From the NCBI GenBank assembly GCA_020725895.1, contig DYTO01000002.1, positions 3,966 through 67,965 of the forward strand: DNA of 64,000 bases, given 5' to 3'. How positions within the stretch are numbered: the stretch's first letter is position 1; each line of letters begins with the position of its first letter. A model generated the notes under the pieces. The model did no database searches and was not told the origin of the DNA. It worked only from the letters and a program-made list of their open reading frames with translations. Position numbers and translations under genes: made by a program. This DNA comes from Candidatus Hadarchaeum sp. GTDB taxonomy: Archaea; Hadarchaeota; Hadarchaeia; Hadarchaeales; Hadarchaeaceae. This document shows positions 7,008 to 55,800 of the stretch, piece after piece.

Positions 7008-8015
7008 ATGCGAAAACAAGTCAACAAGGAAATTTTTGGAGAAATACTTCGGAGATATTTCGAAAATCACGAAGGTTCTACAACATTGGCAAAAATGTAT
7101 GGTATCAATAAATCGACCATTCAGAAATGGTTGAGTTTGAAACTACGCAAAGGTGAAGTTCAATTTGTAATGACTCTTAACAATTGGAATCTCGCCAAAT
7201 CGCGCAGACTGGTGTTTAAAAGAGCAGCGGCAGCAAGAGGCGCTAAATCGAGGAAAAAAGTGATGTTGCGATTCGGCAAAAGTTTTGCATATGCGTTGGG
7301 CGTTCTGTGCGGAGATGGGCATGTCGCAGAGGGTTATGCATATCTACCCTGTCATGACATAAAATTTGCTGAATCGTTTTTGGAAAATGGAGAAAAAGCA
7401 TTTGGTATAAAGGCATCTTTTAATCCAGAAAAGAAAATTAGAGGATTGTACCGCGTAACGTTTCATTCAAGGGAATTAGCGGATAGGTTAAACGACTTGT
7501 ATAAGACTAGGACAAGAGAATGGAAAATTCCTCCGGAGATTGTTAATGGCAATAATTTACTGAAAGCGAATTTTCTAAAGGGGTTTGTTGATTCAGAGGG
7601 ACGTGTCGGTCTTTCGGTTTACAAGTGTTATTATACTGTTAAGAGTGGAGAAAAACGCAGCTGTTGGATTTTGCATGGCTACGTTAATTTAAGTTCTGTA
7701 AATGAAAGAGGCATCAAACAAGTACATAAACTTCTAAAAGATTTGGGCATACGCACCAACTTGTATTTTATCGGAAGAAACGACGAGTGGCGCATTTCAA
7801 CAGTAAAAAACAAGTCAAACTTGCTCCTGTTTCAAAAACTCGTTGATTTCAGAACTGCTAGTGATCACGAGAGGCTGAGGTTTTTAAACCAAAACATCAA
7901 TCATTCACCGAATACATGGAGGTGGATAGGCAGTTCGAAGTACTTGCCAAAAAGGTGTAAGGATATGATGCAGCAACAGAGGCCTAGAGGGGTCGTCTAC
8001 TTGGATAGGCAATAA
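7008..8015 (+). CDS. free-standing LAGLIDADG homing-endonuclease-like protein with N-terminal HTH
   Basis: It has two LAGLIDADG motifs, FAYALGVLCGDGHV and LKGFVDSEGRV. The N-terminus TTLAKMYGINKSTIQKWL is HTH-like. The gene is AT-rich relative to its surroundings. Confidence 0.75.
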   Translation: MRKQVNKEIFGEILRRYFENHEGSTTLAKMYGINKSTIQKWLSLKLRKGEVQFVMTLNNWNLAKSRRLVFKRAAAARGAKSRKKVMLRFGKSFAYALGVLCGDGHVAEGYAYLPCHDIKFAESFLENGEKAFGIKASFNPEKKIRGLYRVTFHSRELADRLNDLYKTRTREWKIPPEIVNGNNLLKANFLKGFVDSEGRVGLSVYKCYYTVKSGEKRSCWILHGYVNLSSVNERGIKQVHKLLKDLGIRTNLYFIGRNDEWRISTVKNKSNLLLFQKLVDFRTASDHERLRFLNQNINHSPNTWRWIGSSKYLPKRCKDMMQQQRPRGVVYLDRQ

Positions 8016-19240: not shown

Positions 19241-19413
19241 CAGACCAGCCTTGAAAACTGGGTGAAATAGCTGATTAGCATTATGACGAAACCGATGGCT
19301 CCGATCAACAATATTCCAAGCCCGGAGATCTTCACGACCTGCATGTACTCGTCCTTCTCAGGTTTCTTCGCCACTTGGAAAAGGCGCTTGCAGTTCTGCA
19401 GGAATTCTCTCAT
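19240..19413 (-). CDS. secE: preprotein translocase subunit SecE (Sec61 gamma)
   Basis: A 57-aa ORF not in the supplied track, reading MREFLQNCKRLFQVAKKPEKDEYMQVVKISGLGILLIGAIGFVIMLISYFTQFSRLV. Its TGA overlaps the spt5 ATG. It lies between ftsZ and spt5. Confidence 0.8.
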   Translation of the reverse strand: MREFLQNCKRLFQVAKKPEKDEYMQVVKISGLGILLIGAIGFVIMLISYFTQFSRLV

Positions 19414-20543
19414 CAGACTTGCTCCAAACCCAAATCAATGTTCTGGATCTTGCGCTGGGGCTTCTCCGACGGCCCGACGGCGTACGGCGAGTGGACGCCC
19501 GACAGTATCACCATGACGCGGATTGTGTTCTTCATGTCCTCGGATATCTGGGCGCCCCACTTCACGTTTGCCTCCGGGTTTAGGGCCTCCGTGACCTTCG
19601 ACACAATCCTCCCGGCTTCCGTCAGCGTCAGGTCGGGGCTTCCTATGATGTTGACCAGGGCGCCTCTCGAGTCCGTGACGTCGACGTCAAGCAGCGGGTT
19701 GTTGAGCGCATCCTGCACGGCCTCGTCAGCCCTGTTTGGCGAGTCCGATTCTCCTATTCCGACCGCAGCGACGCCGCTGTTCTGCAGGACCGTTTTCACG
19801 TCCGCGAAGTCGCAGTTGACCAAGCCTGGCTTGGTTATCACTTCGGTCACTCCCTTGACCGCGTCTGTGAGGACGGTGTCCGCGAATTCGAACGCCGCGC
19901 CAAGCGGAAGGTCCGGGGCGAGTTGTATGAGCTTGTCATTCGGGATGACCACGACGCTGTCCGTGACGTTCTTCAACTTTTCGAGCCCCTGCTCCGCGTT
20001 CGTCTTCCTCCTGGCTCCCTCCACGGTGAAGGGAAGCGTCACAACACCCACCGTCAGGGCCCCGAGCTTCCTTGAGATCTCGGCGACTATTGGCGCCGCC
20101 CCCGTCCCAGTGCCACCGCCAAGCCCGCAAGTGATGAGTACCATGTCCGCGCCGTAGAGGTGGTCCTTGATCGTGGCGTCGTCCTCCCTTGCCGCCGCGT
20201 CACCCTTTTCCGGGTTGTTTCCGGCGCCAAGGCCACCGGTCACATCGCGGCCGATCAGGACTTTCCTGTCGCATGCCGTGTAAATGAGATCCTGAGCATC
20301 TGTGTTGACAGCTATCGTCTCCGCACCCTCGATTCCGACCTTCATCATCCTGGACAGCGTGTTGCATCCGGCCCCGCCGACTCCCACCACCATTATCCTG
20401 GCCTTTGCCTGGCGCAGGATCTGTTCGAGTTCCTCGTTTGTGGTGCCCTTGGGGGCCTCTGAAGATTTCGCCCTCTGCTTGGGCGACGCTATCCCGGGTT
20501 TTAACATGAACCCTGTTTTTGGACTGAAAGTTTCGTCTGGCAA
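19413..20543 (-). CDS. ftsZ: cell division GTPase FtsZ
   Basis: It carries the tubulin signature GGGTGTGAAPIVAEI and the T7 loop. Confidence 0.95.
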   Translation of the reverse strand: MPDETFSPKTGFMLKPGIASPKQRAKSSEAPKGTTNEELEQILRQAKARIMVVGVGGAGCNTLSRMMKVGIEGAETIAVNTDAQDLIYTACDRKVLIGRDVTGGLGAGNNPEKGDAAAREDDATIKDHLYGADMVLITCGLGGGTGTGAAPIVAEISRKLGALTVGVVTLPFTVEGARRKTNAEQGLEKLKNVTDSVVVIPNDKLIQLAPDLPLGAAFEFADTVLTDAVKGVTEVITKPGLVNCDFADVKTVLQNSGVAAVGIGESDSPNRADEAVQDALNNPLLDVDVTDSRGALVNIIGSPDLTLTEAGRIVSKVTEALNPEANVKWGAQISEDMKNTIRVMVILSGVHSPYAVGPSEKPQRKIQNIDLGLEQV

Positions 20544-21946: not shown

Positions 21947-22043
21947 TGGTGGGCCCGAAGGGATTCGAACCCTTGACCACCCGGTTATGAGCTTCGTCCG
22001 GTTTTCGCCGTCGGACGCTCTAACCTAGCTGAGCTACGGGCCC
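21947..22043 (-). tRNA. tRNA-Met (CAU) candidate with a 19-nt non-canonical intron between positions 30 and 31
   Basis: The minus-strand sequence is GGGCCCG-UA-GCUC AGCUAGGUUA GAGC-G-UCCG[ACGGCGAAAACCGGACGAA]G-CUCAUAA-CCGGG-UGGUC-AAGGG UUCGAAU CCCUU-CGGGCCC-A-CCA. Removing the bracketed segment gives the anticodon stem UCCGG/CCGGG. Confidence 0.6.
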
Positions 22044-24813: not shown

Positions 24814-24869
24814 CCCACCACCATGATTACTTTGTTTTGCGTCGGTTTATGTTTTTCCTTTCAAAAAAA

Positions 24870-25024
24870 TGGCGCCGGGGAGAGGACTCGAACCTCTGAC
24901 CTCCTGGTCGCTGCTCACAAGCGCGTCGTACCTTCTGTTGAGGTTCGTTCATCATCCGCGCTTGGTTTTAACAGCCAGGCACGCTACCTACTGCGCCATC
25001 GAGCCGCTTTCGCGGTACCCCGGC
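24870..25024 (-). tRNA. tRNA-Asn (GUU) with two introns: a 19-nt insertion after position 9 and a 60-nt canonical intron after position 37
   Basis: Minus strand: GCCGGGG-UA-[CCGCGAAAGCGGCUCGAUG]-GCGC AGUAGGUA GCGU-G-CCUGG-CUGUUA[60 nt]A-CCAGG-AGGUC-AGAGG UUCGAGU CCUCU-CCCCGGC-G-CCA. The large intron contains GGAUGAUGA, which is box-C-like. Confidence 0.65.
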
Positions 25025-25109
25025 GCATCCGGCGCCAAAGGATAATCCAATCTTTTCCATATAAGGCATTTCGGCAAACGAGGTCGCCGGCGCGAAAATT
25101 GTGGTGGTG

Positions 25110-25201
25110 CGGGCCCGCTGGGATTTGAACCCGGATTTCTCCCTGTCTGCCATTGACAGGGTTAGCGGGGGAGTAGACTATACTGGTTGTCTTACGGGCC
25201 C
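25110..25201 (-). tRNA. tRNA-like locus (intron-containing tRNA or tRNA pseudogene; anticodon unresolved)
   Basis: The acceptor stem GGGCCCG/CGGGCCC and a T-arm GGGUUCAAAUCCC are clear. The D-loop lacks GG and the T-stem has one mismatch. About 18 extra nt in the anticodon region cannot be spliced to give U33. Confidence 0.35.
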
Positions 25202-25245
25202 ACCTCGCTGAAAATTTTTTAGGCGAGCTTAACAGAAGTTTACTC

Positions 25246-25283
25246 AGCGGGGGAGTAGACCGTCCCGTGGGTTGTCATACGGG
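25246..25283. repeat. partial duplicate of the 5' part of the adjacent tRNA-like gene
   Basis: AGCGGGGGAGTAGAC...TTGTC.TACGGG occurs at 25164-25198 and again at 25246-25283. The 15-nt core is identical. The second copy is followed by a T-tract. Confidence 0.5.
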
Positions 25284-25364
25284 ATTTTTTATTTCATTCG
25301 ATCTAGTGTTCACGATATTTCTCGCCGCTCATTTGCGCGGAGGCCGCTTATAAATAGAGAAAAA

Positions 25365-26159
25365 TCACTTTTTCAGCGCGTCTAGCCCTCTGAGCATTCT
25401 CTCAAAAGAAGTTTGGAGATTTTTTTCGTTATCGAACTTTGCCAACTTTTTCAGATTCGCCCGCTCGACAAAAGATAATTTTTTGGCAGTTTTGACCATC
25501 AAAAGCAAGGCGCGCGAGATGTTGTCGACGATTGTGATGTCGGCCGCTCGCGCGGTCCTCGACATCGGGTTCAAGTCTATCGCGATGACAAGCTTGCCCG
25601 ACTTCTTGAGCGCCTCCGTCCTGTCGCCGTCTTCGAGCGGCACGAGAACCACGTCTGCTTTAGCGATCCCGCGGCTGTCGACCTTCCGCCTGTCGCTTTG
25701 GATCTCTTTTATCCTCACAGAAAATTTCTTTTCAGCGCCGAGGACCTCCCGCGCCCCGTGCTTTTTCAACCATCGGGATATCCTCTTCTCCCTCGCGCTC
25801 GAGCCGTGGAACAGATTTACTTCCAGCTTCGAATTAGTTATTTTGCAAAGTTCGACGACCTCTCCAGGGACGAGCGCCGCGACGTTCCCGTTCACCGATA
25901 TCACGGGGTTCTTCGCGAGCAAGAGCGACGCCACCGCAGCATCGATTGCCTCCTTGGCGGCAGCGCTCGTTTTCTCCCCCAGCAGGTAGTCGAAAGCCTC
26001 ACCTCTTCCGTGCGCAGCCAGCCCCTCGGGGATTACCAGCCCCGTCTTGAAACCCTCGGAAATCCTCTCCCTCAGACGAAGGGACTCCGCCCTGGGGTGC
26101 TTTTGTGATATTTCACTCATCGTAGAACCGATTTCCCCCCAACCCAAAAGCTTTTTCAT
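25365..26159 (-). CDS. 4-phosphopantoate--beta-alanine ligase (archaeal phosphopantothenate synthetase)
   Basis: The conserved GRGEAFDYLLGE block and a ~260-aa length match archaeal PPS (COG1701). Confidence 0.7.
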   Translation of the reverse strand: MKKLLGWGEIGSTMSEISQKHPRAESLRLRERISEGFKTGLVIPEGLAAHGRGEAFDYLLGEKTSAAAKEAIDAAVASLLLAKNPVISVNGNVAALVPGEVVELCKITNSKLEVNLFHGSSAREKRISRWLKKHGAREVLGAEKKFSVRIKEIQSDRRKVDSRGIAKADVVLVPLEDGDRTEALKKSGKLVIAIDLNPMSRTARAADITIVDNISRALLLMVKTAKKLSFVERANLKKLAKFDNEKNLQTSFERMLRGLDALKK

Positions 26160-26186: not shown

Positions 26187-26840
26187 ATGAGCGATAAAGA
26201 CATCATCTGGCCTATCATGGCCTTGGCAGCGGCGGTAGTTGCTCTAGGGGTATCCATCTATTCCAGCCCCTTGGTCATGGGAGTTGCGATACCTACTCTT
26301 CTGGTGTCAATAGCCGTCGTGCGCCAGTACCTCGAAAGGATAAAGATACGGGAGGAGGACATCCCCCTCGAGGATTTCTCATGGTGGGCCGACGTGGGCG
26401 AGCCAGCGGGGACCCTATTGAGCCTGAAGCCCGGTGAAGAGGTGATGGCCACCCAAGTGGTCGCCAGCGATTTCAAGAACCTATCGAGGAACGCCGACCT
26501 TCTAAGCAGCAGACTTAGGCTTCTTGTCGGGCGGAGGGAGTTCATAAACTTCAGCCCGGATTTCACCAACGACTCTTGGAAGGTCGCGCATTCGCTCGCC
26601 GATCTTGCGAGATCGATCGAGACGAGTGGAATGATAGAGTCGGAGCTTTACAAGACCATAGAGCAGCACGCGGCGCGCTTCGACAGGATGGCGAACAAGC
26701 TTTTCGAGTACGAGAAGGACAAGTCGGAGACCATTCACATATACATAGACCCGCTACGCAGGGCATCCGAGAAACTCTCCCGCGATCTGAGGAAAGCGGC
26801 TTCGAACCTCTACAAATTCGAGAAGCGGAAATCTCCGTGA
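26187..26840 (+). CDS. hypothetical membrane-anchored protein
   Basis: 217 aa with two N-terminal TM helices followed by a charged coiled region. Confidence 0.5.
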   Translation: MSDKDIIWPIMALAAAVVALGVSIYSSPLVMGVAIPTLLVSIAVVRQYLERIKIREEDIPLEDFSWWADVGEPAGTLLSLKPGEEVMATQVVASDFKNLSRNADLLSSRLRLLVGRREFINFSPDFTNDSWKVAHSLADLARSIETSGMIESELYKTIEQHAARFDRMANKLFEYEKDKSETIHIYIDPLRRASEKLSRDLRKAASNLYKFEKRKSP

Positions 26841-26846
26841 TGGTTC

Positions 26847-28115
26847 ATGCCAAAGCCGCACGTCAACCTAGTTTTCATAGGGCACGTTGACCACGGCAAG
26901 TCCACGCTTGTGGGCAGGATACTCGTCGAGATGGGGATGGTCAGGGAGGAGGACATCCGCAAGTTCGAGGCGATGGGAGACAAGGGGAAGACGTTCAAGT
27001 TCGCGTGGGTCATGGACCGCGAGAAGGAGGAGCGTGAGAGGGGGCTCACGATCGACATCGCATACCAGAAGCTCGAGACCCAGAAGAACTTCATAACTAT
27101 CATCGACGCGCCGGGGCACCGCGACTTCGTCAAGAACATGATCACAGGCGCTAGCCAGGCGGACGCCGCGGTCCTTGTCGTGGCGGCCGACGACGGCATA
27201 ATGCCGCAGACCCGCGAGCATGCGGCGTTGTCGTTCACTCTTGGAGTTGATCAGTTGATCATCGCGATCAACAAGATGGACACCGTCGACTTCAAGCAGG
27301 ATGTTTACAACAAGATAAAGGGTGAACTCTCTGCCCTCCTGACTGGGATAGGATACAGAAATGTTGAAAAGTTCCCGTTCGTCCCGATTTCCGCTTTTCA
27401 CGGAGTGAACATCTCGAAGACTAGCACGAATCTGCAATGGTACAAGGGCCTGACTTTGATTCAGGCGATGGAAGGCCTGATGGAGCCGGAGAAACCGATC
27501 AACAAGCCACTCAGGATTCCGATACAGGATATTTTTTCCGTGACCGGGATCGGCACGGTCCCGATAGGCCGCGTCGAAACTGGTGTTGTGAAAGTTGGTG
27601 ACACCCTGATTTTCGAGCCAGCCGGGGTGAAAGGCGAGGTGAAGTCGATAGAGATGCACCACGAGCAAATTCAGAAGGCGGTCCCCGGCGACAACATAGG
27701 TTTCAACGTGAGGGGAGTGAACCGAGAACAGCTGAGGAGAGGGGACGTCGCGGGACACGCGGACAAGCCCCCGAACGTAGCGACCGAGTTCACGGCCAAG
27801 ATAGTCGTGCTGGCGACGCCGACTGATATAACCGCCGGTTTCACGCCTCTTTTTCACTGCCATGCGGCTCACGAGCCCGGGAAGATTTTGGAAATAGTAC
27901 AGAAGATCGACCCGAAGACAGGAGGCGTCACGGAGGAAAAGCCGAGCAGCCTCAAGAAGGGTGACGCCGGGGTCATCAGGGTTTCCTTGCTGAAACCAAT
28001 GGTCCTGGAGAAGGCGAGTGATGTTTCTGAGCTCAGCAGATTCGCGGTGAGGCACGGTGGACAGACGGTCGCAGCCGGGATTTGTGTCGACACAGTTTCG
28101 CTGAAGCGCAGTTAA
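26847..28115 (+). CDS. elongation factor 1-alpha paralog (second copy; divergent domain III and C-terminus)
   Basis: 422 aa with a full GTPase domain, [14 protein letters not shown] and NKMD. It is roughly 65-70% identical to the canonical copy at 45015..46283 and shares a 143-nt identical tract with it. The HxHTAQ block is altered to HCHAAHEPGK. Confidence 0.85.
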   Translation: MPKPHVNLVFIGHVDHGKSTLVGRILVEMGMVREEDIRKFEAMGDKGKTFKFAWVMDREKEERERGLTIDIAYQKLETQKNFITIIDAPGHRDFVKNMITGASQADAAVLVVAADDGIMPQTREHAALSFTLGVDQLIIAINKMDTVDFKQDVYNKIKGELSALLTGIGYRNVEKFPFVPISAFHGVNISKTSTNLQWYKGLTLIQAMEGLMEPEKPINKPLRIPIQDIFSVTGIGTVPIGRVETGVVKVGDTLIFEPAGVKGEVKSIEMHHEQIQKAVPGDNIGFNVRGVNREQLRRGDVAGHADKPPNVATEFTAKIVVLATPTDITAGFTPLFHCHAAHEPGKILEIVQKIDPKTGGVTEEKPSSLKKGDAGVIRVSLLKPMVLEKASDVSELSRFAVRHGGQTVAAGICVDTVSLKRS

Positions 28116-28124
28116 AAAAATCGA

Positions 28125-28271
28125 TTATGCTTTCGGCTCTTTTGATTTTGGCCTGAGTCCATGGTACCCGCATTTCCTGCACTTCTCTGCACGCCAAGGA
28201 TTCTTGGCGTTGCACCTCATGCAGACCTTCAGATGGAAGAGCCTCTGTTCGGCGACATCAAACTTTGCCAT
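28125..28271 (-). CDS. rpl40e: 50S ribosomal protein L40e
   Basis: A 48-aa ORF not in the supplied track, reading [48 protein letters not shown]. The C4 zinc ribbon is typical of L40e. Confidence 0.8.
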
Positions 28272-44665: not shown

Positions 44666-44974
44666 CTATGTCTTCATCTCTATCTCGATAGCGACTTCTT
44701 CGGGGACCTGCACTCTCATGAGCTGCCTCAATGCCCGCTCGTCCGCTTGCATGTCGATCAGGCGCTTGTGGACCCTCATCTCCCACCTGTCGAAAGTCGC
44801 CGTCCCCTCGCCATCAGGGGACTTCCTTATCGTCATCTTGAGCTTCTTCGTAGGGAGTGGGATTGGCCCATGCAGGGTGACCCCTGTCCGCTTCGCTATC
44901 GTTATTATCTGCTCGCACACCTCGTTCAGCTTTTTGGTGTCCGTGCTCGATATCTTTATCCTAGCTTTTTGCAA
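44666..44974 (-). CDS. rps10: 30S ribosomal protein S10
   Basis: 102 aa of the uS10 family, immediately downstream of EF-1alpha as in the canonical arrangement. Confidence 0.9.
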
Positions 44975-45014
44975 GTGTATCCCTAAATTCTATGGAGCAG
45001 GGGTTAAAAAAGGA

Positions 45015-46283
45015 CTACTTTGCGGGCGTCAGGTCCACGCAAACGCCGGCAGCGACCGTCATCCCCATGTCCCTGATCGCGAACCTGCTCATCTGCGGGA
45101 ACTCAGAGGCTTTTTCAATAACAATCGGCTTGCTTGGCGTAACGACGATAGTCGCCATGTCACCCTTCTTTATGAACTCTGGCTTTTGCTCGGTCGGCTC
45201 ACCGGTCTTTGGATCCAGCTTGTTCGTTATCTCGGAGATCTTGCACGCGACCTGCGCGGTGTGCACGTGGAACACCGGCGAGTAACCAGCGGCCAAAGCA
45301 GTCGGGTGCTGAAGCACGGCGACCCTGGCCCTGAACTCTTTCACAACCGTCGGGGGCTTGTTCGGGTGCCCGATGACGTCCCCTCTCTTCACGGCGCCCT
45401 TCTCGATGCCCCTGACGTTGAACCCGATGTTGTCCCCGGGCTCGGCCTGCTGGATGTTCTCGTGGTGCATCTCTATCGATTTCACCTCGCCCTTAACGCC
45501 AGCGGGCTCGAAGACTATCGCGTCCCCGACCTTGATTATACCTGTTTCAACTCGCCCAACAGGGACAGTCCCGACACCGGTTATCGTGTAAACATCCTGC
45601 ACCGGAAGCCTGAGCGGTTTGTCCGTAGGCTTTTTCGGGATGATAAAGTTGTCAAGCGACTCGTAGAATGTCGGCCCGGTGTACCACTTCATCTTGTCGC
45701 TCCTCTTCAAGATGTTTTCCCCGAGGAACGCCGCCGTCGGCACGAATGTGAACTTTTCAGGCCCCCTGTGCCCGACAGCTTTCAACAGGTCTACTATCTC
45801 GCCCTTGAGCTTGTTGTATACTTCCTGCTTGTACTCGACCAGGTCCATCTTGTTGATCACGATAACAAACTGCCCGACGCCGAGCGTGAACGACAACGCC
45901 GCATGCTCGCGGGTCTGCGGCATTATGCCGTCGTCGGCCGCCACGACAAGGACCGCGGCGTCCGCCTGGCTAGCGCCTGTGATCATGTTCTTGACGAAGT
46001 CGCGGTGCCCCGGCGCGTCGATGATAGTGAAAGTGTACTTGTCAGTTTCGAATTTCTTGTGGGCGAGGTCGATTGTTAGTCCTCTCTCACGCTCTTCCTT
46101 CAGGGCGTCCATGACCCACGCGAACTTGAACGTCTTCCCCTTGTCTCCCATAGCTTCGAACTTTTTCACGTCGTCCTCCCTGACGACTCCCTTTTCGAAG
46201 AGAGTTCGCCCTAGGAGTGTGGATTTTCCGTGGTCCACGTGACCAATCGACACAAGGTTCAAGTGTGGTTTCGCCATGTTCAT
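45015..46283 (-). CDS. tuf: elongation factor 1-alpha (canonical copy in the str-type cluster)
   Basis: 422 aa with [18 protein letters not shown] and [10 protein letters not shown]. It lies between rps7 and rps10. Confidence 0.95.
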
Positions 46284-46325
46284 TTCTCCTTTGCTATTTT
46301 TTCTTAACGTAAAGGATATAAAAAC

Positions 46326-46931
46326 CTATCTGGCGCCTTTTGCTATGCGCTCAAGTTCCTCCTTTTGGGAAACGGCATAGCTTTTCACATCGTTGCCCGC
46401 GGCCATTATGATCTCCTCCGCCAGACTGACCTTAACGGTCTTTTTCGTGGCGAAAGTCGCCGCGTAAGCCCCAGCAGCAATGTTCTTCAGAGCTATGTCG
46501 AGCCTCCTCTGCGGTGCGGAATCGACCGCCATGTAATATGCTATCCCACCGTAAGTGAGTCTCGTGGTCTCCTCACGCGGCGCCGAGTTCTGGACCGCGT
46601 CGACCAAAACCTGCACCGGCGATTTCTTGGTTTTCTGAGCGATGATTTTGAAAGACTCCTTCACTATGTTGTACGCCTTGTTCTTCTTCCCGGTCGCCCC
46701 GCCGCCGCGGATGGTCTTCCCGCGCAGTCTCCTCGCCCCCGGCCCCGACCTCATTATCTTGTTCATCAACCTTTCGACGATAGTGACCTCCGACTTTTTG
46801 AACTGCTTGTTTGCGTGCCTTCCAGACGTGTGTGTGATGAATCTCGGTTCGAGGTTGATGTATCTCTTCAAGCCCTCGTCCCTGATGTTGATGTTCTCAG
46901 CACCCCATTCCCCAAAATATTTGAAATTCAA
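46326..46931 (-). CDS. rps7: 30S ribosomal protein S7
   Basis: 201 aa of the uS7 family. Confidence 0.9.
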   Translation of the reverse strand: MNFKYFGEWGAENINIRDEGLKRYINLEPRFITHTSGRHANKQFKKSEVTIVERLMNKIMRSGPGARRLRGKTIRGGGATGKKNKAYNIVKESFKIIAQKTKKSPVQVLVDAVQNSAPREETTRLTYGGIAYYMAVDSAPQRRLDIALKNIAAGAYAATFATKKTVKVSLAEEIIMAAGNDVKSYAVSQKEELERIAKGAR

Positions 46932-46935
46932 AAGA

Positions 46936-47382
46936 TCACCTTGTTGGTTTCTCCTTTCTTCCTTTCACGAGCTCGTTCAGCGAAACTCCGTTGACCTTTA
47001 CAACACGATACCTGACGCCCGGTATGTCCCCGTAAGACCTGCCCTTCGCGCCGCCTATCCCCTCTATCACTACCTCGTCGTGCTCGTCGATGAAGCCTAT
47101 CGCGCCCTCGCCGGGTGCGAAAGCCGTGAGCTGGCGCCCGTTCTTCACCAACTGGACCCTGACGCACTTCCTTATCGCGGAGTTTGGCTGCTTCGCCTCT
47201 ATCCCGACCTTCTCAAGGACTATCCCTCTCCCCTGAGGCGCCCCTTCAAGCGGGTCTGCCTTCTCCTTTAGCCTGAGGATCCTCCTTCTGTACTGTGGGT
47301 CCTTCCACCTTAGCTTCTGCCTCGCAAAAGTCAGCTTCCTAGCAGCGAATGCTCCTTTAGGCGACTTCATCTGAACACTCAA
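46936..47382 (-). CDS. rps12: 30S ribosomal protein S12
   Basis: 148 aa of the uS12 family, with the conserved [13 protein letters not shown]. Confidence 0.9.
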
Positions 47383-47839: not shown

Positions 47840-48138
47840 CTCGTTTCCACCGCGCTGAGAATGCTGGAATTCCCTGGGTTCACGACTGCAACCATGTTCA
47901 CTGTGAATGGCTTCCCGCAAGCTAGCCCCAACTCCCTGCTGTCCTTCTCAAAAACGTGGAACCTCACGCCAGCGATGCTCGAGTAGTGGCGCGCGTCATC
48001 GAGAGGATCCTTCGGACAGTTCGATGCAACTATGACGAGCTTTGCCTGGCCGCGCTTGATGACTTTCAAAGTCCTGTCGGTCCCGATCGCAACTTCGCCG
48101 GACGACACGGCTCTCCCGAGTTCCTTACTTACCTCCAC
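47836..48138 (-). CDS. rpl30e: 50S ribosomal protein L30e
   Basis: 100 aa of the L30e/L7Ae fold, between rpoA'' and nusA. Confidence 0.85.
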
Positions 48139-49318
48139 CCTTTGCGCCTCCTTTCATAACTAGCTCCACTGTTCCGGTGCCCAGTGGGATGGGCTGCCCG
48201 GCAATGACGTTCTCTATTATCCCGGATAGCCTGTCGGATTCCCCGTGCATGCAAGCTTCGAAGATGTGTTTGGTCGTCGTCTCGAAGGAGGCCCTGGCCA
48301 GAACGCTGGCCTTTTCGCCGCTTATCCCGTGTCTTCCTATCTGCCTGATCGACCCAGAAGCGGTCATCATGTCGGAGACGAGCATTATGTGGCGCACGTC
48401 CACATCTAGCCCCTGCTCTTCCAGAGTCTTTATCGCCTCGTTGATTATCGCGTTCCTCGCGGCCTCTATCCCGAGGGTCTGCTCAATCTCATAGATGTCG
48501 TTGGTGACCGTCCTGTCCTGGTCGACCTCAGGCATGTTCAGGATGTCCGCTAGGTTCGAACCCTCAGTGTACACCACGTACTCCGTTCCTTCTATTTTCA
48601 CGAGGACCCTGGTTATCCCCTTCACGCCGAGAAGCAAGTGGGACTTGACCTTTGTCGCGTTCCTCCTCAACTCCGTCATGCTCTCGTTTTCTGATTTTAT
48701 CCTGAGCTTGTACCCGTCTATCCCGACCTCCAAGTCTAGGCCGTTCGCTATCGAGGATGCGATTATCTTTGGCGTGAGCCCCAGCCTCTGGACCTTTGTC
48801 CTGTCCAGGGTGACGATGAAAATCAGGTTTATCAGGTCAGTCTCCGTCTGGAGCGCCAGGTCCTCGACGGTGGTCATCTCGATCTTCTGCGCGAATTCCC
48901 TCGCCTTCTCCCTGCTCTTCGAGTATTTTTCCTTCAAGTATATGACCATCAAAGCCGTTGAAAGGGTCTTCCTCGCGTCGAGGATTTCGATCAGCCTCGG
49001 CAGACCCAGCGTGACGTTCAGCTCTGCGACACCGGCATAGTGGAACGTCCTGAGCGTCATCTGAGTGCCCGGCTCCCCTATCGATTGGGCGGCCACTGTC
49101 CCTACAGCCTCCCCCGCCTCAACGGTGGCCCTCTGGTACGCGTTCTTGACTGCGTCGATTGCCTTTTCCAGCTGCTCCCTCGAGATAGCCTTGTCTTTCG
49201 AGATCTGCGTGAGATTTTGCTGGAGGTCTTTCATGATAAGTTCCGGTACTTCGCCCTCGAGCTTCTGGACCTCTGTTTTGATCGTGTCCGGAGAAACTCC
49301 CGCCATCTCAATCACCAA
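48125..49318 (-). CDS. rpoA2: DNA-directed RNA polymerase subunit A''
   Basis: 397 aa, homologous to the C-terminal third of Rpb1. Confidence 0.9.
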
Positions 49319-51938
49319 CTATCTGTGACAATATCTTCTTCACGTTCACAGATTTTCCTCCTTCGCTCCTCGAGGGGTCGACGTTGTCCTCCCCGTAAAC
49401 GAACTGAACTATGTATCCCCTGTCGTCCCTCACAGTCCCATCGTATTCCACGCGCAAGTCCTGGAGCGCGTTGATCAAGCGCCTCTGCAGATAACCGCTT
49501 TGCGCGGTCCTAACGGCAGTGTCGACGAGACCTTCCCTTCCACCCATCGCGTGGAAGAAGAACTCCAGAGGCTTCAGACCACCCTTGTAGCTTGAGCTGA
49601 TGAACCCGCGTGCGTCCGCGCCCAGGTCCCCGGCCTTGAAGTGCGGCAATGTCCTCCCCTTGTACCCGCGGCTTATCCTCTCACCCCTCACCGACTGCTG
49701 CCCCACGCAAGCCGCCATCTGCGTCAGGTTGAGCATGCTGCCCCTCGCGCCCGTCCTCGCCATCACCACGGCGTGGTTGGTTAGACCAAGGTATTTTTCG
49801 GCGATCGAGCCAGCCGTGTCCCTGCTCTCTGCGAGGACCCCCATTATCCTCATCTCTAGGGTCTCGTGGAGAGACCGACCTGGCAGGGGTTCCAGCTCCC
49901 CGGCGTTGTAGACTTCAATCAGCTTCTTCACCTTTTCTTTCGCATCGTCTATCGCCTCGTTGATCCTATCGATGGCCTCCGTCGGGATGTCCTCGTCGTC
50001 TATCCCGGTCGTGAATCCGAACTTCATCGCGGAAGCTATCGAAAGCTTCGTGGCGTTGTCGAGGTAATCCTTCGCGGCGGTCGTCCCGTAGTCTTTGATT
50101 ATCCTATCGAGTATCTCGCACCTGTCGAGGGCTTTCATCGCCCTTGCGTCGATCACCCCGGTGACGAGTTCCCCGTCCTTTATCGAGACGTACGCATCGA
50201 TCTCGCAATCCTCCTTCTTGCACGAGGCGCAGTTCTCGCATATCTTCGCCTTGAATCTCAGGTTGAGGTCCTTCGGGAAGAGCATGCTGTAAATCTGCTT
50301 CCCCGTCCAGTACTCCTCGCCGTCTTCCTTCCCGGCAGGTTTTGGCAAGTCCTTGAACATCCTCGCGCTCGCGAGAAGCTGCTGCGCGTCATCCCTGCTC
50401 AGCTTCGTGTCGCGCTTCGTCAGGAGGTAAGCGCCTGTTATGTGATCCTGTATCCCGCCGATGATCGGGCCCCCGAAGCGAGGCGAGAGAATCTGCTCCT
50501 GAACTTTCATCAGTATCCTGGCCTCGGCCTGCGCCTCTTCCGTCTGTGGCACGTGAACGTTCATCTCGTCGCCGTCGAAGTCGGCGTTGTAAGGCGGACA
50601 AACGCTCAAGTTCAGCCGGAACGTCTTGCCAGGGAGCACCTTGACCTCGTGGGCCATTATCGACATCCTGTGCAGAGAGGGCTGTCTGTTGAAGAGAACG
50701 ATATCCCCGTCCTTCAGGTGCCTCTCGAGCCTGTACCCGACTTCCAAGTTGTTTGCGAGCTCTTCCCTGTCGGCGTACCTCAGGTCGTAGCGTTTGCCGT
50801 CAGGGCTCATGAGATAGTTCGCTCCGGGATAGGCGTCCGGTCCGCGCCTGACAAAGTTCCTCAGGTCCTCCAGGTTGTGCTCCGTCACCCGCACAGGGAC
50901 TGTAAGCGTCTTGGCGACGTACTCTGTCAAACCTATCTCGTTGATGCTTATGTTCGGGTCGGGAGAAACCACGGTCCTCGCAGAGAAGTCCACACGCTTT
51001 CCCGAAAGGTTTCCTCTGAACCTCCCCTCCTTCCCCCTCAGCCTCTGCGCGATCGTCCTGAGCACCCGGCCAGACCTGTGCCTTGCGGGCGGCACTCCCG
51101 AGACGGCGTTGTCGATGTAAGTCGTGACGTGATATTGCAAAAGCTCCCAGAGGTCCTCTACGATAAGGTGAGGCGCACCGGACTCTATGTTATCTGCCAG
51201 TCTCTGGTTGATCCTTATTACGTCGACCAGCTTGTGAGTCATGTCGTCCTCCGACCTGACCCCAGACTCGATGGTTATGCTAGGTCTCACGGTGACTGGC
51301 GGCACGGGCACTACTGTTAGGACCATCCACTCGGGCCGAGCAACTAACGGGTCGATTCCCATCAGGAGAAGGTCGTCGTTCGGTATCTTCTCAAGCCTCT
51401 CCCTTACGTCGCTGGGCGTGAGCCTGTTCTTCCCCTCGTTGAACGATGTCGGTTTTTCGAACTTTATCTTTATCTTTTTTTCCTTGCAGTGGGGACATGT
51501 CTCAACCGCCGAGGCGTCCCTTATCGCCTTTTTCGAGATTTCCCACCATCTCCCGCCCTCCTTCTTCTGACTCTCTATCTCTTTTCTAATGTTTGTGGCC
51601 TTCTCGTCGGAAAGCAAGATTCGCCCACAGGTCCTGCTCCTGCAAGTTGCGCGCAGGCAATCGTAAATGTCTTCCACGTAGCCGATGTTCACGACTGGCC
51701 TCGCTATCTCGATGTGGCCGAAATGTCCGGGACAGTCTCTGGCGCCTGCACCGCATGTTCTGCATCTCAGGCCAGGGTCGATCACGCCGAGGCGGAGGTC
51801 CATCAGGCCCCCTTCTATCGGGTAGCCGTCCTCGTCGTACGTGTCGGCGGTGACAATCTTCGTGACGGACATCTTCCTTATATCGTCGGATGACATCAGC
51901 CCGAAATCGATCCTGTCAATCATTTTTGCTATCCTCAT
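49308..51938 (-). CDS. rpoA1: DNA-directed RNA polymerase subunit A'
   Basis: 876 aa with zinc-binding CxxC motifs and NADFDGDEM. Confidence 0.95.
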
Positions 51939-51946
51939 ATTCCCAC

Positions 51947-54900
51947 CTAGACTCTCTCCCTCGTCCTTATCTTTGGCATCAGCCCCATGGATTTCATCTC
52001 GTCAACCAAAAGCTTGAACGCGTATGACATTTCCACCTCGTATATCTCGGACTCCTCCTCGCAGAACATGCAAACGGCGCGGTCGTGTCTCCTGTCGTAG
52101 ACGGCGAGGTTGCCGCACTTTCCGCAGACAAGGACTCTGTAGCGGTCGGAAGCGTCGAGTAGCCTCTCCTTCAGGAGCATCGCCGCCCCGTGACCGATTA
52201 TGCAGTCCCTCTCCATCTCCCCGAACCTCAGCCCGCCTTCCCTAGCGCGGCCCTCGGTCGGCTGGTGGGTCAGGACCTGGATCGGCCCGTGCGACCTCGC
52301 GTGGATCTTGTCAGCGACCATGTGGTGAAGCTTCTGGTAGTAGCAGGCGCCTATGAATATTTCAACAGGTATCTTCTCGCCCGTGACCCCGTTGTAAAGC
52401 ACATCCTCCCCGGTGTTCTTGAAGCCGAATTGCTTCAAAATCGCCCTCAGCTCCATCTCCGGAGTGTTGCTGAATGGAGTCCCGTCCATACGCTTGCCGA
52501 TGAACGCCCCGACCTTCCCCGCTATCATCTCCACAAGCATGCCGACGGACATCCTTGACGGGATCGCGTGCGGGTTTATCACGATGTCCGGAACGACCCC
52601 CTCCTCCGTGAAAGGCATGTCGGTGGTGTCCAGCACTATCCCGACGACGCCTTTCTGGCCGTGTCTCGATGCCAGTTTGTCACCTATCTCCGGGATTCTC
52701 TGGTCCCTCACCCGGACTTTTGTGAACAAGTTGCCGTCCAACGTGATCGATTTGAGTATCATGTCTGAGACTCCCTCCTCGCTCGGCCTCACCCTGATTG
52801 AGCTCTCGCGCCGCCCGTGCTCCTTCGCCAGCCCGAACTCGTCCATCTCCTCGAGGAATCTTGGCGGGCTGGTCTTCCCTATCAGGACATCCTCCCCTTT
52901 CACGTCCGTCTCCACCTCGATTATCCCGTCCTCGCCAAGGCTCCTGTATGAGCTGGTTTCCGCGTATCCCCTGATATCTTCTCCAGGCGTCTCAAACTTG
53001 TCCATCTCTCCGCCCGGGTACCTGATTTCCTCCGCCTCGTATATGCGGTAGAATGTCGTCCTACCGAAACCCCGCTCTATCATCGCCTTCTTCACGATGG
53101 CCGCATCTTCCATGTTGTATCCGCCGTAGGCGGAAATCGCGACAATGATGTTTTGTCCGGCCGCCCTCTTGTCGAAGCCGACAGCTTCCATGACCTTTGT
53201 CTTCACGAGCGGGACCTGGGGGTAGTGGAGGAAGTGTCCGCGCGTGTCGACTCTCGAGTGTATGTTGGTGAATGCCAGACCGAGCGCCTGCTTTGCCATA
53301 TTCGCTCCGTAAGTGTTCCTGGGCGACTGGTTGTGCTCGGCGTATGGGACGAGCGCGGTGCTTATCCCCAATATCGCAAGCTGGTGCAACTCGACATGGG
53401 AGTGGTCGCTCGTGATTTCATTCGAGTAGACAGCTATTAGGGCGTTCTCCTCCTCGTCGGGGTCCAGGTACTCGATGACTCCCTGGTTGATCAGGTCTTT
53501 CCAGGCAAGCTCGCCCTTCCTGACCTTTTCTATTATCTCATCGGTCAACTTTGGTTTCATGTTTTCGACCACGATCAGGGGGCGCCTTATCCTCCCTGCA
53601 TCGGTGTTGACCTTCACCTCATCCGTGTCGGCCCTGAACGTGACGTTGACCTGCTCATCGAGGTTCCCCTTTCTCCTGTTCTGGCGTATTTTGTCGGCGA
53701 GCTCTTTCCCGTTTTCAGATATCCCGACCAAACGACCGTTGATGTAAACTGCGGTCTTCCCTTTCCTCTCGCTGCTCTTCATTATCTTAGTGACGCCGAG
53801 CCTGCCGAGAAGTTTCTCGACCCTGCTCTCGTCTGTGCCTATCGAGATTTCGGCCGTTATCGCCAGGTTCTTAACGAGGCCGCAGTTAGGGCCCTCGGGC
53901 GTTTCCGAAGGACAGATCTTGCCCCAGTGCGTCGAGTGCAAGTCCCTGGCCTCGAAGTGTGGCTGGCTTCTGCTCAGCGGCGAGACGACTCTCCTCAGGT
54001 GTGAGACGGTCGCTATATAGTTCGTTCGGTCGAGAAGCTGGCTAACGCCAGTCCTCCCGCCTGGCCAGTTCCCGGTCGCGAGCGCGTGCCTTATCCTCTC
54101 GGTGAGGACGTCCGCGCGGGCAGCCGTCCTGAGGTTCAGCTCCCTGCCTCTCGCGTGTGAGCGCTCGAGCTGGTACTTGATGTCCCTGACGAGGTTCATG
54201 AATGCGAGCCTGAAGACGTTCTCGAGCAGGTCACCGGCGAGCTTTAGCCTCTTGTTGGCGTAGTGGTCCTTGTCATCGGCCCTGCGCCTTCCGAGCGCGA
54301 GGTCTAACACCTGCTCGGACATCCTGCCAAGATAGTAAGCTTTGTTCGGGCGGTCCTTCTGGTCGGTGCCTATGTGCGGGAGCAAATATTTGTCGAGGAC
54401 TTCCTGAGCGCGCTGGAGCCGGTAGTTCCTCGGCTGTCCGATCGCGACGCGTTTCCCGATGAAGTCGAGGGCATCCTGCCTAGTCTTCACCTCTACTGCC
54501 TCTTGCAGGTTCTCGAAGAGCTCTCTAACTATTTCAGGATCATCAGAAACAGCCTCGACTATTTCCCTGTCGCTCTCGAGGCCCAAAGCTCGCACGATCA
54601 CGACCAGCGGGACCTGTCCAGGCACAGCGGGGAATGAGACGCGCAGCAACCCGTCGCGCTTCCTCTCCACGACAACGAATGCGCGGAAGCCCCTGTGGCT
54701 TGAGAATACTTTCGCGACCTCTGTCCCGACGCGCTCGTCCCTCTCGACGAGGATCGCGTTCGAGGCGAGGTCCTCCTGCGCGACGATCACGCGCTCTGAA
54801 CCGTTGACGATGAAGTAGCCGCCCGGGTCGAGGTAGTCCTCGCCGTTGGACATCAGGTCGTCCTCGCTCATGCCGCTCAGCCTGCAAATCTTCGATTTCA

Positions 54901-55249
54901 GCATGACGGGAAGCTCGCCGATGTAGACATCCTCCGGAGGTTGGACCCGGCCGCCGATGTCGAGGCTCATCTCCAAAAAGACCGGCGCCGTGTAGCTCAG
55001 GTTCCTGAGCCGCGCCTCGTGGGGCCAGAGCTTCGGCCTGGAGCCGTCCGCCTCCTTGACAGATGGCTGCTCGAGCCTTATCTTCGCGAATTTCACATCA
55101 ACGCCTTCGATGTCGAGGTCGATCCCGCTTATCTCATCAATGACTTGCTGGAGGCCCCGCTCGACAAAATCGTTATAAGAATCAAGGTGCTGGCGGACGA
55201 GGCCCTTTTCCTTGAAAAAAGATTCAACAATCGGCCAAGTTTCTTGCAT
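51947..55249 (-). CDS. rpoB: DNA-directed RNA polymerase subunit B (fused, unsplit)
   Basis: 1100 aa with both the B'' and B' regions in one ORF. The stop is TAG. Confidence 0.95.
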   Translation of the reverse strand: MQETWPIVESFFKEKGLVRQHLDSYNDFVERGLQQVIDEISGIDLDIEGVDVKFAKIRLEQPSVKEADGSRPKLWPHEARLRNLSYTAPVFLEMSLDIGGRVQPPEDVYIGELPVMLKSKICRLSGMSEDDLMSNGEDYLDPGGYFIVNGSERVIVAQEDLASNAILVERDERVGTEVAKVFSSHRGFRAFVVVERKRDGLLRVSFPAVPGQVPLVVIVRALGLESDREIVEAVSDDPEIVRELFENLQEAVEVKTRQDALDFIGKRVAIGQPRNYRLQRAQEVLDKYLLPHIGTDQKDRPNKAYYLGRMSEQVLDLALGRRRADDKDHYANKRLKLAGDLLENVFRLAFMNLVRDIKYQLERSHARGRELNLRTAARADVLTERIRHALATGNWPGGRTGVSQLLDRTNYIATVSHLRRVVSPLSRSQPHFEARDLHSTHWGKICPSETPEGPNCGLVKNLAITAEISIGTDESRVEKLLGRLGVTKIMKSSERKGKTAVYINGRLVGISENGKELADKIRQNRRKGNLDEQVNVTFRADTDEVKVNTDAGRIRRPLIVVENMKPKLTDEIIEKVRKGELAWKDLINQGVIEYLDPDEEENALIAVYSNEITSDHSHVELHQLAILGISTALVPYAEHNQSPRNTYGANMAKQALGLAFTNIHSRVDTRGHFLHYPQVPLVKTKVMEAVGFDKRAAGQNIIVAISAYGGYNMEDAAIVKKAMIERGFGRTTFYRIYEAEEIRYPGGEMDKFETPGEDIRGYAETSSYRSLGEDGIIEVETDVKGEDVLIGKTSPPRFLEEMDEFGLAKEHGRRESSIRVRPSEEGVSDMILKSITLDGNLFTKVRVRDQRIPEIGDKLASRHGQKGVVGIVLDTTDMPFTEEGVVPDIVINPHAIPSRMSVGMLVEMIAGKVGAFIGKRMDGTPFSNTPEMELRAILKQFGFKNTGEDVLYNGVTGEKIPVEIFIGACYYQKLHHMVADKIHARSHGPIQVLTHQPTEGRAREGGLRFGEMERDCIIGHGAAMLLKERLLDASDRYRVLVCGKCGNLAVYDRRHDRAVCMFCEEESEIYEVEMSYAFKLLVDEMKSMGLMPKIRTRERV

Positions 55250-55588: not shown

Positions 55589-55711
55589 CAAAAAGCGGCT
55601 GTCCTTTTTTGTGTTCGCTATTAACGTTGAAACCGAGGGCTTATAAATACTTTTGATTGGGGGACTTTGAAGTTTTTCGATGTTTTGGATTAGACGGGCA
55701 TAAACATCAGG

Positions 55712-55800
55712 CGCCCTGGCCGAGATTTGAACTCGGGGCAAAGCCTATCTGCGGAAACCGCGACAGGGCTTTATGTTAGACCGGGCTACACCACCAGGGC
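55712..55800 (-). tRNA. tRNA-Asp (GUC) candidate with a ~14-nt canonical intron
   Basis: GCCCUGG-UG-GUGU AGCCCGGUCUA ACAU-A-AAGCC-CUGUCG[CGGUUUCCGCAGAU]A-GGCUU-UGCC-CCGAG UUCAAAU CUCGG-CCAGGGC-G. Confidence 0.6.

Follow-up and report, generated by a model that had tools for sequence, protein, structure and literature searches.

Why would an archaeon keep two genes for elongation factor 1α (EF-1α, aEF1A), when archaeal EF1A is known as one carrier GTPase that serves elongation, termination and ribosome rescue? The question is raised by a stretch of 64,000 nucleotides (nt) from a Candidatus Hadarchaeum sp. (assembly GCA_020725895.1, contig DYTO01000002.1, positions 3,966 to 67,965; hereafter the window). 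An earlier reading of its letters alone (the sequence-only reading) had pointed out two intact EF-1α open reading frames (ORFs) of 422 amino acids (aa) on opposite strands, and both are indeed there: copy A and copy B (Table 1). That reading had estimated their identity at roughly 65-70%; alignment gives 65.5% at the aa level and 70.9% at the nt level (420 ungapped aligned codons, the ends being offset by two residues). We consider it quite probable that the two genes go back to an old duplication, after which one type (A) became linked to a membrane partner gene, exchanged parts of its domains 1 and 2 with the other type (B) by recurrent gene conversion, and acquired a remodelled domain 3.

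Both copies are members of the EF-1α family. They contain the three EF-Tu domains in Pfam (PF00009, PF03144, PF03143/PF22594) and exceed the 540.1-bit cutoff of the TIGR00483 equivalog model, copy A with 615.2 and copy B with 648.4 bits. Against the selB and aIF2γ models copy A stays below the cutoffs (191 bits with a cutoff of 242, and 112 bits with a cutoff of 514, respectively), and at 422 aa, without an extension, it lacks a C-terminal extra domain of the SelB type. Its G1-G5 motifs (SAF included) and the catalytic His are intact, and the equivalents of His94, Arg68 and Asp96 are invariant in the A clade. Copy B outscores copy A against every solved archaeal aEF1A. The codon usage of copy A falls within the range of ribosomal-protein and RNA polymerase (RNAP) genes and its composition matches that of the host genome; as a proxy for expression, codon usage does not tell the two copies apart. 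A survey of translational GTPases from 2015 recognises only aEF1A, aGTPBP, aIF2γ, aSelB and aSelBL as archaeal families, and characterises aGTPBP by a divergent sequence of the GTPBP type and a variable region at the N terminus (PMC4342817). Judged by that description only, an aGTPBP identity would be incompatible with copy A, which is 65% identical to canonical aEF1A, passes the equivalog model and is without such an N-terminal region. The sequence-only reading had held that separate EF-1α paralogs are not established in archaea. The survey lists none (PMC4342817), and the limited library of literature that we searched contained no description of an archaeal aEF1A paralog subfamily, of a Hadarchaeota A-type or of its partner.

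The second copy is by no means confined to this genome. Almost all homologs of copy A carry the label Hadarchaeota or Hadesarchaea, and they form two groups: an A-like group, mostly 414 aa long, 70-78% identical to copy A and ~63% to copy B, and a B-like group, mostly 420 aa long and ~80% identical to copy B. At the level of sequence clusters we counted at least 100 A-type and at least 120 B-type, again nearly all labelled Hadarchaeota. In neighbour-joining trees with 103 A-clade, 20 B-clade and 19-21 other archaeal aEF1A tips, the A clade, the B clade and the two together (A+B) were each recovered in 100 of 100 bootstrap replicates. After addition of Pyrococcus horikoshii and exclusion of conserved or converted regions, A+B was still recovered in 96 of 100 replicates and A joined Pyrococcus in none. 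The mean distance to the outgroups is 0.69 for A versus 0.57 for B; the longer branches, together with the lower scores against solved archaeal aEF1As, point to A as the derived, faster-evolving copy. Both types lie ~50 kb apart on a single 249,782-bp contig of GCA_029259175.1. A syntenic second copy, which the sequence-only reading had proposed looking for in related genomes, was found for example in L131 (GCA_964453945.1), in GCA_029259175.1 and in Ca. Hadarchaeum L007. A scan of genome contigs with the EF1A alignment was swamped by the universal motifs IGHVDHGK and TIIDAPGH, and gave two Hadarchaeota loci plus outgroups. From these comparisons we judge the duplication to be old and present across many Hadarchaeota lineages. 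A single B-type protein (P0172, with 81% identity to copy B) is labelled 'Methanobacteriota archaeon' by NCBI; this may reflect a binning or taxonomy label problem rather than a true presence beyond Hadarchaeota.

Superimposed on this old divergence is an exact match. A tract of 143 nt in copy A is the perfect reverse complement of a tract in copy B (TIIDAPGH...HAALSFT), as the sequence-only reading had noticed and as nucleotide alignment of the two genes bears out. The peptide that it had assigned to the tract needs trimming: the aa match does run onward to ...TLGV, while the exact nt match ends within the Thr codon of ...LSFT and some synonymous sites differ beyond it. Identity is 143/143 within the tract versus 67% outside. 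At codons for identical amino acids, synonymous differences occur in 99 of 227 outside versus 1 of 48 inside; the probability of 47 codons without any synonymous difference is ~2e-12, or 7e-9 to 3e-12 if region-specific between-genome rates are used. Since the amino acids of this region are near-invariant, comparison with other genomes is the decisive control. There, identity in the tract region is 79-87% for A-A, B-B and A-B pairs. L131 carries a close sister ortholog of copy A (92.9% aa and 85.2% nt identity, same synteny), and the two are 87.4% identical in the tract (18/143 sites differ); copy B and its closest ortholog (L132) are 85.3% identical, and the remaining pairs reach 79-85%. A Sawyer-type permutation test found 44 consecutive matching polymorphic sites, versus a maximum of 19 in 5000 permutations (p<1/5000). 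Six between-genome pairs (four A-B, one A-A, one B-B) gave no comparable fragment, their longest run being 12 sites and their lowest p 0.044. The second-longest fragment between copies A and B (13 sites) corresponds to an exact run of 45 nt, with two mismatches just upstream of it, and appears to mark an older or second converted segment. We attribute the 143-nt tract to recent intragenomic gene conversion rather than to chance, codon bias or selection, recent because of the 18 differences from the sister ortholog; on these sequences the event postdates the split of the window lineage from the L131 lineage and is the most recent conversion in the former. Of the two origins offered by the sequence-only reading, conversion is upheld by the permutation and between-genome controls, and a chimera is not needed, since in each gene the sequence to either side of the tract fits that gene's own clade.

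The direction of transfer can be read for part of the tract. The Ser of HAALSFT is common to the five B-type clusters closest to copy B (P0154-P0156, P0158, P0167), and among A-types it occurs only in copy A and in P0013; the sister ortholog in L131 has the ancestral Ala, which is otherwise found at this position in 92 A-type and 113 B-type sequences. As this Ser is native to the B sub-lineage and absent from the sister ortholog of copy A, at least the 3' third of the tract was, by this character, copied from B into A. The tract is moreover a mosaic: informative sites favour the A ortholog 8:1 over the 5' ~95 nt and the B ortholog 6:1 over the 3' ~50 nt (Fisher p=0.009), which points either to two events or to the patchy repair of one heteroduplex. 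For the tract as a whole, the polarity of the nucleotide sites is ambiguous (10:7:5), and only the 5'/3' mosaic and the Ser character could be extracted. P0013, which is not near copy A, may represent an independent B-to-A transfer or a parallel substitution. The two tracts are inverted repeats ~18.6 kb apart, and recombination between them could invert the intervening segment, as with Salmonella tufA/tufB.

Conversion between the two types has recurred elsewhere. The A/B pair of GCA_029259175.1 (L002 10001-11254 and L004 10001-11263) has its own significant Sawyer fragments in domain 2 (31+19+17+10 matching polymorphic sites, p<1/5000), with near-identical runs of 59, 44 and 31 nt. Its A and B share 95.6% aa identity in that domain, versus a mean of 84% to other B-types. 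This conversion lies at a different place from that in the window and is independent of it. A second line of evidence is a 6-aa deletion in the G domain (...EKELK------DEAGSFKFAW), present in 91 of 103 A-clade members. The remaining 12, copy A among them, have the long form that is typical of B-types and Pyrococcus and ends in (S/T)FKFAW. In a tree of domain 3 alone, the long forms are scattered over at least four positions within groups of short forms, and the basal A lineages have the short form; repeated re-acquisition of the 6-aa segment from the resident B gene would be the most parsimonious history. Trees of the separate domains agree with such a picture. With domain 1 the two types are not resolved (monophyly of A and B in 16 and 23 of 100 replicates, A+B in 98), with domain 3 they are (A 99, B 93), and the clades share 67% identity in domain 1, 76% in domain 2 and 53% in domain 3. 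We conclude from these patterns that conversion is recurrent, limited to the G domain and domain 2 and at least partly directed from B to A, and that it has not erased the difference in domain 3.

The A-type is nevertheless a well-kept gene. Its median ratio of nonsynonymous to synonymous substitution rates (dN/dS) is 0.073 overall and 0.066 in domain 3 (31 coding sequences, 65 pairs), which indicates strong purifying selection in all three domains. The sequence-only reading had also considered a pseudogene without conservation in relatives. Copy A is the opposite of this: its ORF is intact, the A-type numbers at least 100 clusters and dN/dS is ~0.07. B-types and other archaea have 208 conserved positions in common; at 15 of them the ancestral residue has been given up in the A clade, and ten of the 15 lie in domain 3 (P=4e-4). 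Residues were mapped by alignment to Aeropyrum pernix aEF1A (4cxg_A) and Thermus thermophilus EF-Tu (4v5p), and contact residues were taken from the aRF1-aEF1α-GTP structure 3VMF (PMC3467058). The altered domain-3 block HCHAAHEPGK of copy A (aa 337-346), spotted in the sequence-only reading, is real and is a signature of the clade, fewer than 10% of whose members keep the ancestral residues there. The block lines up with the strand bearing T. thermophilus EF-Tu Gln341 to Gly351. We take Gln341, Thr350 and Glu390 of EF-Tu to be contacts of the tRNA T-stem. A Tyr in place of EF-Tu His67 and the Pro of HEPG were also tried as signs of altered aminoacyl-tRNA binding, and were dropped because canonical factors have Phe (A. 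pernix) and Pro (Pyrococcus) there.

The comparison of contact residues between the copies, another suggestion of the sequence-only reading, shows three domain-3 contacts for aRF1 (Ala338, Phe379 and Asp414) replaced in A and kept in B. Ala338 and Phe379, both in Site 1, are reported to be important for formation of the aRF1-aEF1α complex (PMC3467058). At Ala338, where domain C of aRF1 docks, the A clade has mainly Asp (44), Glu (44) or Gln (9), so that 88 of 103 members are acidic, and copy A has Asp327; the B clade has Ala in 20/20 and other archaea Ala (11), Val (9) or Ser (1). At Phe379, a hydrophobic contact, the six commonest residues of the A clade (Ala 35, Ser 31, Tyr 12, Cys 10, plus Thr and Val; 100/103) do not include Phe, which is kept by fewer than 10%; copy A has Ser368, and Phe is found in 20/20 of the B clade and 17/21 of other archaea. 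Asp414, in Site 3, is His in 102/103 A-clade members (His403 in copy A) and Asp in 20/20 of the B clade and 21/21 other archaea, although its mutation had no effect on two-hybrid binding (PMC3467058). Met415 corresponds to Gly404 in copy A. Other contacts are retained. Glu64, Arg68, His94, Asp96, His348 and Arg413, which comprise domain-1 contacts, the catalytic His and Site 3, are invariant in A, B and other archaea. Of the residues that contact aPelota and tRNA, Arg309 is invariant in A and B (Arg 20, Lys 1 in other archaea) and Lys99 is invariant in B and other archaea and Lys (94) or Arg (9) in the A clade. Copy B retains all aRF1/aPelota contact residues. The positions of the stalk-binding pocket (PMC6791870) are hydrophobic in both copies, and copy A retains the equivalents of the acceptor-end pocket residues Glu226, Asp227, Phe229 and Asn285 of EF-Tu.

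The A-type does not travel alone. The unknown membrane protein that the sequence-only reading had placed beside copy A is confirmed as a 217-aa orphan, encoded directly upstream, with its TGA (26838-26840) 6 nt before the ATG of copy A. It has two N-terminal transmembrane helices (aa 4-23 and 28-50), a conserved linker LEDFSWWADVGEP (aa 61-73) and a four-helix bundle, predicted to be cytosolic (aa 85-215), with the conserved C-terminal motif DPLRRASEKLSRDLRKAASN. In its AlphaFold2 model (mean predicted local distance difference test score, pLDDT, 81.5) the bundle is confident. The protein had no match in Pfam, NCBIfam or PADLOC, and a Foldseek comparison of its fold with the PDB returned only generic helical bundles, none at E<=1e-3. 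A profile search among 1.84e9 proteins recovered 21 cluster representatives. Scanning metagenomes with partner-specific motifs yielded 42 loci, three of which end within 23 nt of the partner stop, leaving 39 testable. An EF1A gene lies downstream in 39/39, and in 38 of them, with one outlier, it starts ~2-22 nt from the partner stop or overlaps it. Of the downstream EF1A genes, 28 extend into domain 3, and every one of these is A-type, with FA(V/I)RH. Conversely, A-types found independently of the partner also have it: those of GCA_029259175.1, Ca. Hadarchaeum L007, the basal P0109, the divergent P0068 and the sister genome L131. We regard the gene, on this gene-order evidence, as a strictly linked, lineage-restricted partner of the A-type, very probably co-transcribed with it. 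L40e, the other neighbour named by the sequence-only reading, is present too and proves to be merely local, standing beside an A-type only in the window and in L131. Among the partners, those of L007 (1242-2111) and L129 (3102-4004) have a long Pro/Glu/Ala-rich low-complexity C-terminal extension and measure 289 and 300 aa versus ~218. In L100 (JABAOH010004372.1) the A-type ORF after the partner ends at ~130 aa, perhaps through a frameshift or a sequencing error or because the gene is a pseudogene, and in L126 (Ga0315306_10001118) an EF1A motif lies ~2 kb downstream of a short partner-like match.

How might these features fit together? The B-type is the canonical factor, placed in the str cluster, slow in its evolution and with its aRF1/aPelota contacts retained. 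The A-type would still be a ribosome-dependent carrier GTPase, with P-loop, switch regions, catalytic His, stalk pocket and acceptor-end pocket intact. Its domain-3 docking face for ligands, which in aEF1A receives domain C of aRF1 or aPelota and in EF-Tu presumably the T-stem, would have been re-specified, so that the A-type may no longer serve aRF1 in the canonical way. It could act with the membrane-anchored partner, for example as a membrane-tethered or partner-gated carrier of tRNA or of a tRNA mimic, and selection would keep domain 3 distinct because the functional difference resides there. That the A-type is a specialised translational GTPase, as the sequence-only reading had supposed, is plausible. 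For the joint step, in which domain 3 is under selection as the seat of the difference, its docking face is re-specified and the A-type acts with the partner, we see the scales as roughly level. More tentatively, and with somewhat less than even confidence, we propose that the A-type and its membrane-anchored bundle partner could form a new two-component translational GTPase system and the first partition of the 'omnipotent' archaeal EF1A, one factor being membrane-tethered or -gated, with conversion keeping the G domain matched and selection protecting domain 3.

Several points weigh against this interpretation. Any binding of the A-type to the partner, tRNA, aRF1 or the ribosome is hypothetical, and the fold of the partner is a generic helical bundle. 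The A-specific replacements are not significantly enriched among the listed aRF1/aPelota contacts (P about 0.17-0.18). Some of the changes also have counterparts in canonical factors, that of Pyrococcus having Pro in HTAQIPV and Ile in YITIID and that of A. pernix having Phe at the EF-Tu His67 position. The trees are neighbour-joining trees only, their outgroups include one Thermococcales sequence and no Methanobacteria or Methanococci, and the monophyly of A+B can be inflated by conversion itself. For the 5' two-thirds of the tract, the direction of transfer is ambiguous. Finally, all data come from metagenome-assembled genomes (MAGs) or metagenome contigs.

These points leave room for simpler accounts of the A-type. 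It could be a redundant or condition-specific isoform, comparable to bacterial tufA/tufB or Streptomyces tuf3, whose adjacency to the partner is synteny without functional coupling. We give this a real though minor chance: both copies pass the EF-1α equivalog model, the GTPase motifs and the acceptor-end pocket are all retained, the codon usage of copy A is in the ribosomal-protein/RNAP range, the enrichment at contact residues is not significant, and conversion between A and B shows that much of the protein is interchangeable. Yet domain 3, at 53% identity between the clades, is strongly constrained within A (dN/dS 0.066) and has not been levelled by conversion, and the replacements of Phe379 and Asp414 extend throughout the A clade. 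The junction of 2-22 nt or overlapping, and an orphan gene found only beside A-types (38 loci and one outlier), likewise argue for a functional pair. Rather improbable, in our view, is a carrier for one particular tRNA or aminoacyl-tRNA in the manner of SelB, aSelBL or the nematode mitochondrial EF-Tu1/EF-Tu2. A-specific changes do align with T. thermophilus EF-Tu His67, Thr239, Gln341, Thr350, Glu390 and Gly391, EF-Tu His66/67 contacts the aminoacyl side chain (PMC9071432), and the contacts to the acceptor end and 5' phosphate (equivalents of Lys99 and Arg309) are kept. But Tyr or Phe in place of His67 and Pro in place of Thr350 are found in canonical aEF1As too, there is no SelB-like extra domain, the SelB and aIF2γ models score far under their cutoffs, no unusual tRNA gene lies near the copy A locus, and the membrane partner would be left unexplained.

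One of the roles suggested in the sequence-only reading was that of a GTPase dedicated to release or rescue, which would be an archaeal counterpart of eRF3/Hbs1 and carry aRF1, aPelota or a paralog of either. The conservation in the A clade of the domain-1 aRF1 contacts Glu64, Asp96 and Arg68, of Arg413 and of the aPelota-specific Lys99 and Arg309 speaks for it, and partner-specific contacts have been proposed to have allowed such a split in eukaryotes (PMC3467058). In the canonical binding mode it is disfavoured by the replacement of Site-1 Ala338 and Phe379 with Asp/Glu and with small or polar residues across the A clade and of Asp414 with His, and no aRF1 or aPelota gene was found in the A-type neighbourhoods of the window and related loci; we find such a role very doubtful. 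Acquisition of the A-type by horizontal transfer from another archaeal lineage, instead of duplication within Hadarchaeota, could account for states in common with Thermococcales aEF1A (Pro in the ...IPV block, Ile in YITIID, EPEKP), but it is hard to reconcile with 0/100 support for A with Pyrococcus, with 100/100 support for A+B (96/100 without the conserved or converted regions) and with a composition that matches the host genome, and seems highly unlikely. We give still less credence to the notion that the identical tract is an artefact of MAG assembly or polishing. The source is a MAG contig (P0001 and P0154 lie on a 96,870-bp NCBI contig) and 143 nt is about one short-read length; but both genes are intact and clade-typical to either side of the tract, repeats are where assemblers break contigs and not something that they create, and the Ser in common between the copies has a coherent phylogenetic history. 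The same process is also seen in independent assemblies, as domain-2 conversion in GCA_029259175.1 and as B-type segments in A-types of at least four lineages.

Our preferred interpretation, an old and specialised A-type paralog under domain-restricted conversion, has partial parallels in known systems. Conversion between elongation-factor genes is classic for bacterial tufA/tufB (Abdulkarim and Hughes, 1996; Hughes, 2000; Lathe and Bork, 2001, as cited in PMC4342817). As those sources are cited there, in Salmonella and E. coli too, two inverted genes, one of them in the str operon, exchange sequence by homologous recombination or conversion; those genes are near-identical throughout and redundant, whereas the Hadarchaeota copies are 65% identical, belong to Archaea and show patchy conversion in domains 1-2 with a distinct domain 3. 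The actEF-Tu2 group with Streptomyces tuf3 (PMC4342817) resembles the A-type as a diverged, lineage-restricted second EF-Tu/EF1A subfamily beside a canonical factor. Unlike the A-type, found in many Hadarchaeota lineages, tuf3 is sporadic in its group, stress-expressed and antibiotic-resistant, and has no obligate partner gene. In the split of eEF1A, eRF3 and Hbs1 (PMC3467058, PMC4342817), duplication of an EF1A-type gene was likewise followed by re-specification of docking surfaces, with one copy here keeping the aRF1/aPelota residues and the other changing them. eRF3 and Hbs1, however, acquired extensions at the N terminus and retain contacts of the Phe379 type to eRF1 or Pelota; the A-type is without an extension, such contacts have been lost from it, and its identity to the canonical factor is 65%. 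Nematode mitochondrial EF-Tu1/EF-Tu2, SelB and aSelBL (PMC4342817, PMC3037878) are paralogs whose tRNA-binding surface is altered for a subset of ligands; they have C-terminal domains or extensions and known unusual tRNA ligands, neither of which is evident for the A-type. Archaeal aEF2 paralogs show, for a different family (EF2), that a core translational GTPase can have lineage-specific paralogs in Archaea, and the available portion of that source notes no conserved membrane partner or conversion tracts (PMC6143161). New here, in our assessment, is an EF1A subfamily with a novel obligate partner and domain-restricted concerted evolution, for which this locus provides a clear example in Archaea.

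A phylum-wide second EF1A with a remodelled docking domain would be a natural experiment on the splitting of an omnipotent factor, independent of the eukaryotic eEF1A/eRF3/Hbs1 split, and the linked orphan membrane partner gives a concrete experimental handle on it. Both genes pass the same equivalog model and annotation pipelines therefore name them alike, which makes the paralogy invisible. Where EF-1α serves as a phylogenetic marker, mixed paralogs or G domains that are conversion mosaics could mislead trees that include Hadarchaeota.

The genomic settings of the two genes differ (Table 1). Upstream of the str cluster with copy B lie RNAP genes (48125-55249), and B-types are always found in the arrangement rpoH-rpoB-rpoA'-rpoA''-L30e-NusA-S12-S7-EF1A-S10 (in other genomes, L004 and L132). 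Copy A is outside this cluster, its position being directly after the partner gene.

Table 1. Positions in the window of the two EF-1α genes, their converted and remodelled segments, and neighbouring genes
Feature	Position	Strand	Basis or remark
Copy A, A-type EF-1α paralog, 422 aa, intact ORF	26847-28115	+	ORF, Pfam
Copy A, domain 1 (approximate)	26847-27491	+	
Copy A, domain 2 (approximate)	27492-27761	+	
Copy A, domain 3 (approximate)	27762-28112	+	
Copy B, canonical B-type aEF1A, 422 aa, intact ORF, str cluster	45015-46283	-	ORF, Pfam
Exact conversion tract, copy-A side, 143 nt, G3 to pre-G4	27096-27238		reverse complement of 45886-46028
Exact conversion tract, copy-B side, 143 nt	45886-46028		
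Probable older or second converted segment of copy A, B-type stretch with the 6-aa segment absent from most A-types	26961-27017		
Exact 45-nt run, copy-A side	26973-27017		reverse complement of 46107-46151
45-nt run, copy-B side	46107-46151		coordinates from alignment register (copy A index + 6 nt)
A-clade signature block HCHAAHEPGK, replacing H.HTAQVAC	27855-27884	+	clade consensus
Putative remodelled aRF1/aPelota domain-C docking face of copy A	27825-28058	+	3VMF contacts, 4cxg_A numbering
Partner gene, 217-aa orphan membrane protein	26187-26840	+	directly upstream of copy A
Phosphopantothenate synthetase (PPS), divergent, synteny marker beside the partner/A-type pair	25365-26159	-	PF02006
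L40e	28125-28271	-	neighbour of copy A
str-cluster context of copy B	44666-47382	-	ORF, Pfam
S12	46936-47382	-	
S7	46326-46931	-	
S10	44666-44974	-	

In L002, L007, L129, L130 and L131 the PPS gene also adjoins the pair of partner and A-type. Beside the pair in GCA_029259175.1, a MazE/PIN toxin-antitoxin pair is inserted between the OCD and PPS genes (L002 7418-8078); it is absent from the window (24814-25364), and PADLOC gave no link to a defence system. No aEF2 gene lies between S7 and EF1A in the str-type cluster of the window, nor in those of L004 and L132. A D-aminoacyl-tRNA deacylase of the archaeal type (PF04414; 20587-21363, minus strand) is encoded ~5.5 kb upstream of the partner/copy-A pair, with FtsZ at 19413-20543. 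The deacylase was not found in the 10-kb flanks of the corresponding GCA_029259175.1 locus and is probably unrelated to the pair. Two tRNA genes of the window, both on the minus strand and neither near an EF1A locus, are long: tRNA-Asp(gtc) (55710-55800) has an unusual 91 nt and may hold an intron, and tRNA-Ser(cga) (21947-22043) has 97 nt. A 335-aa ORF at 7008-8015 (plus strand) with a LAGLIDADG_3 homing-endonuclease-like domain stands out by its GC content (0.39, and 0.40 at third codon positions, versus ~0.55-0.59 and 0.66-0.82 in other sampled genes of the window), and is probably a recently acquired mobile element.

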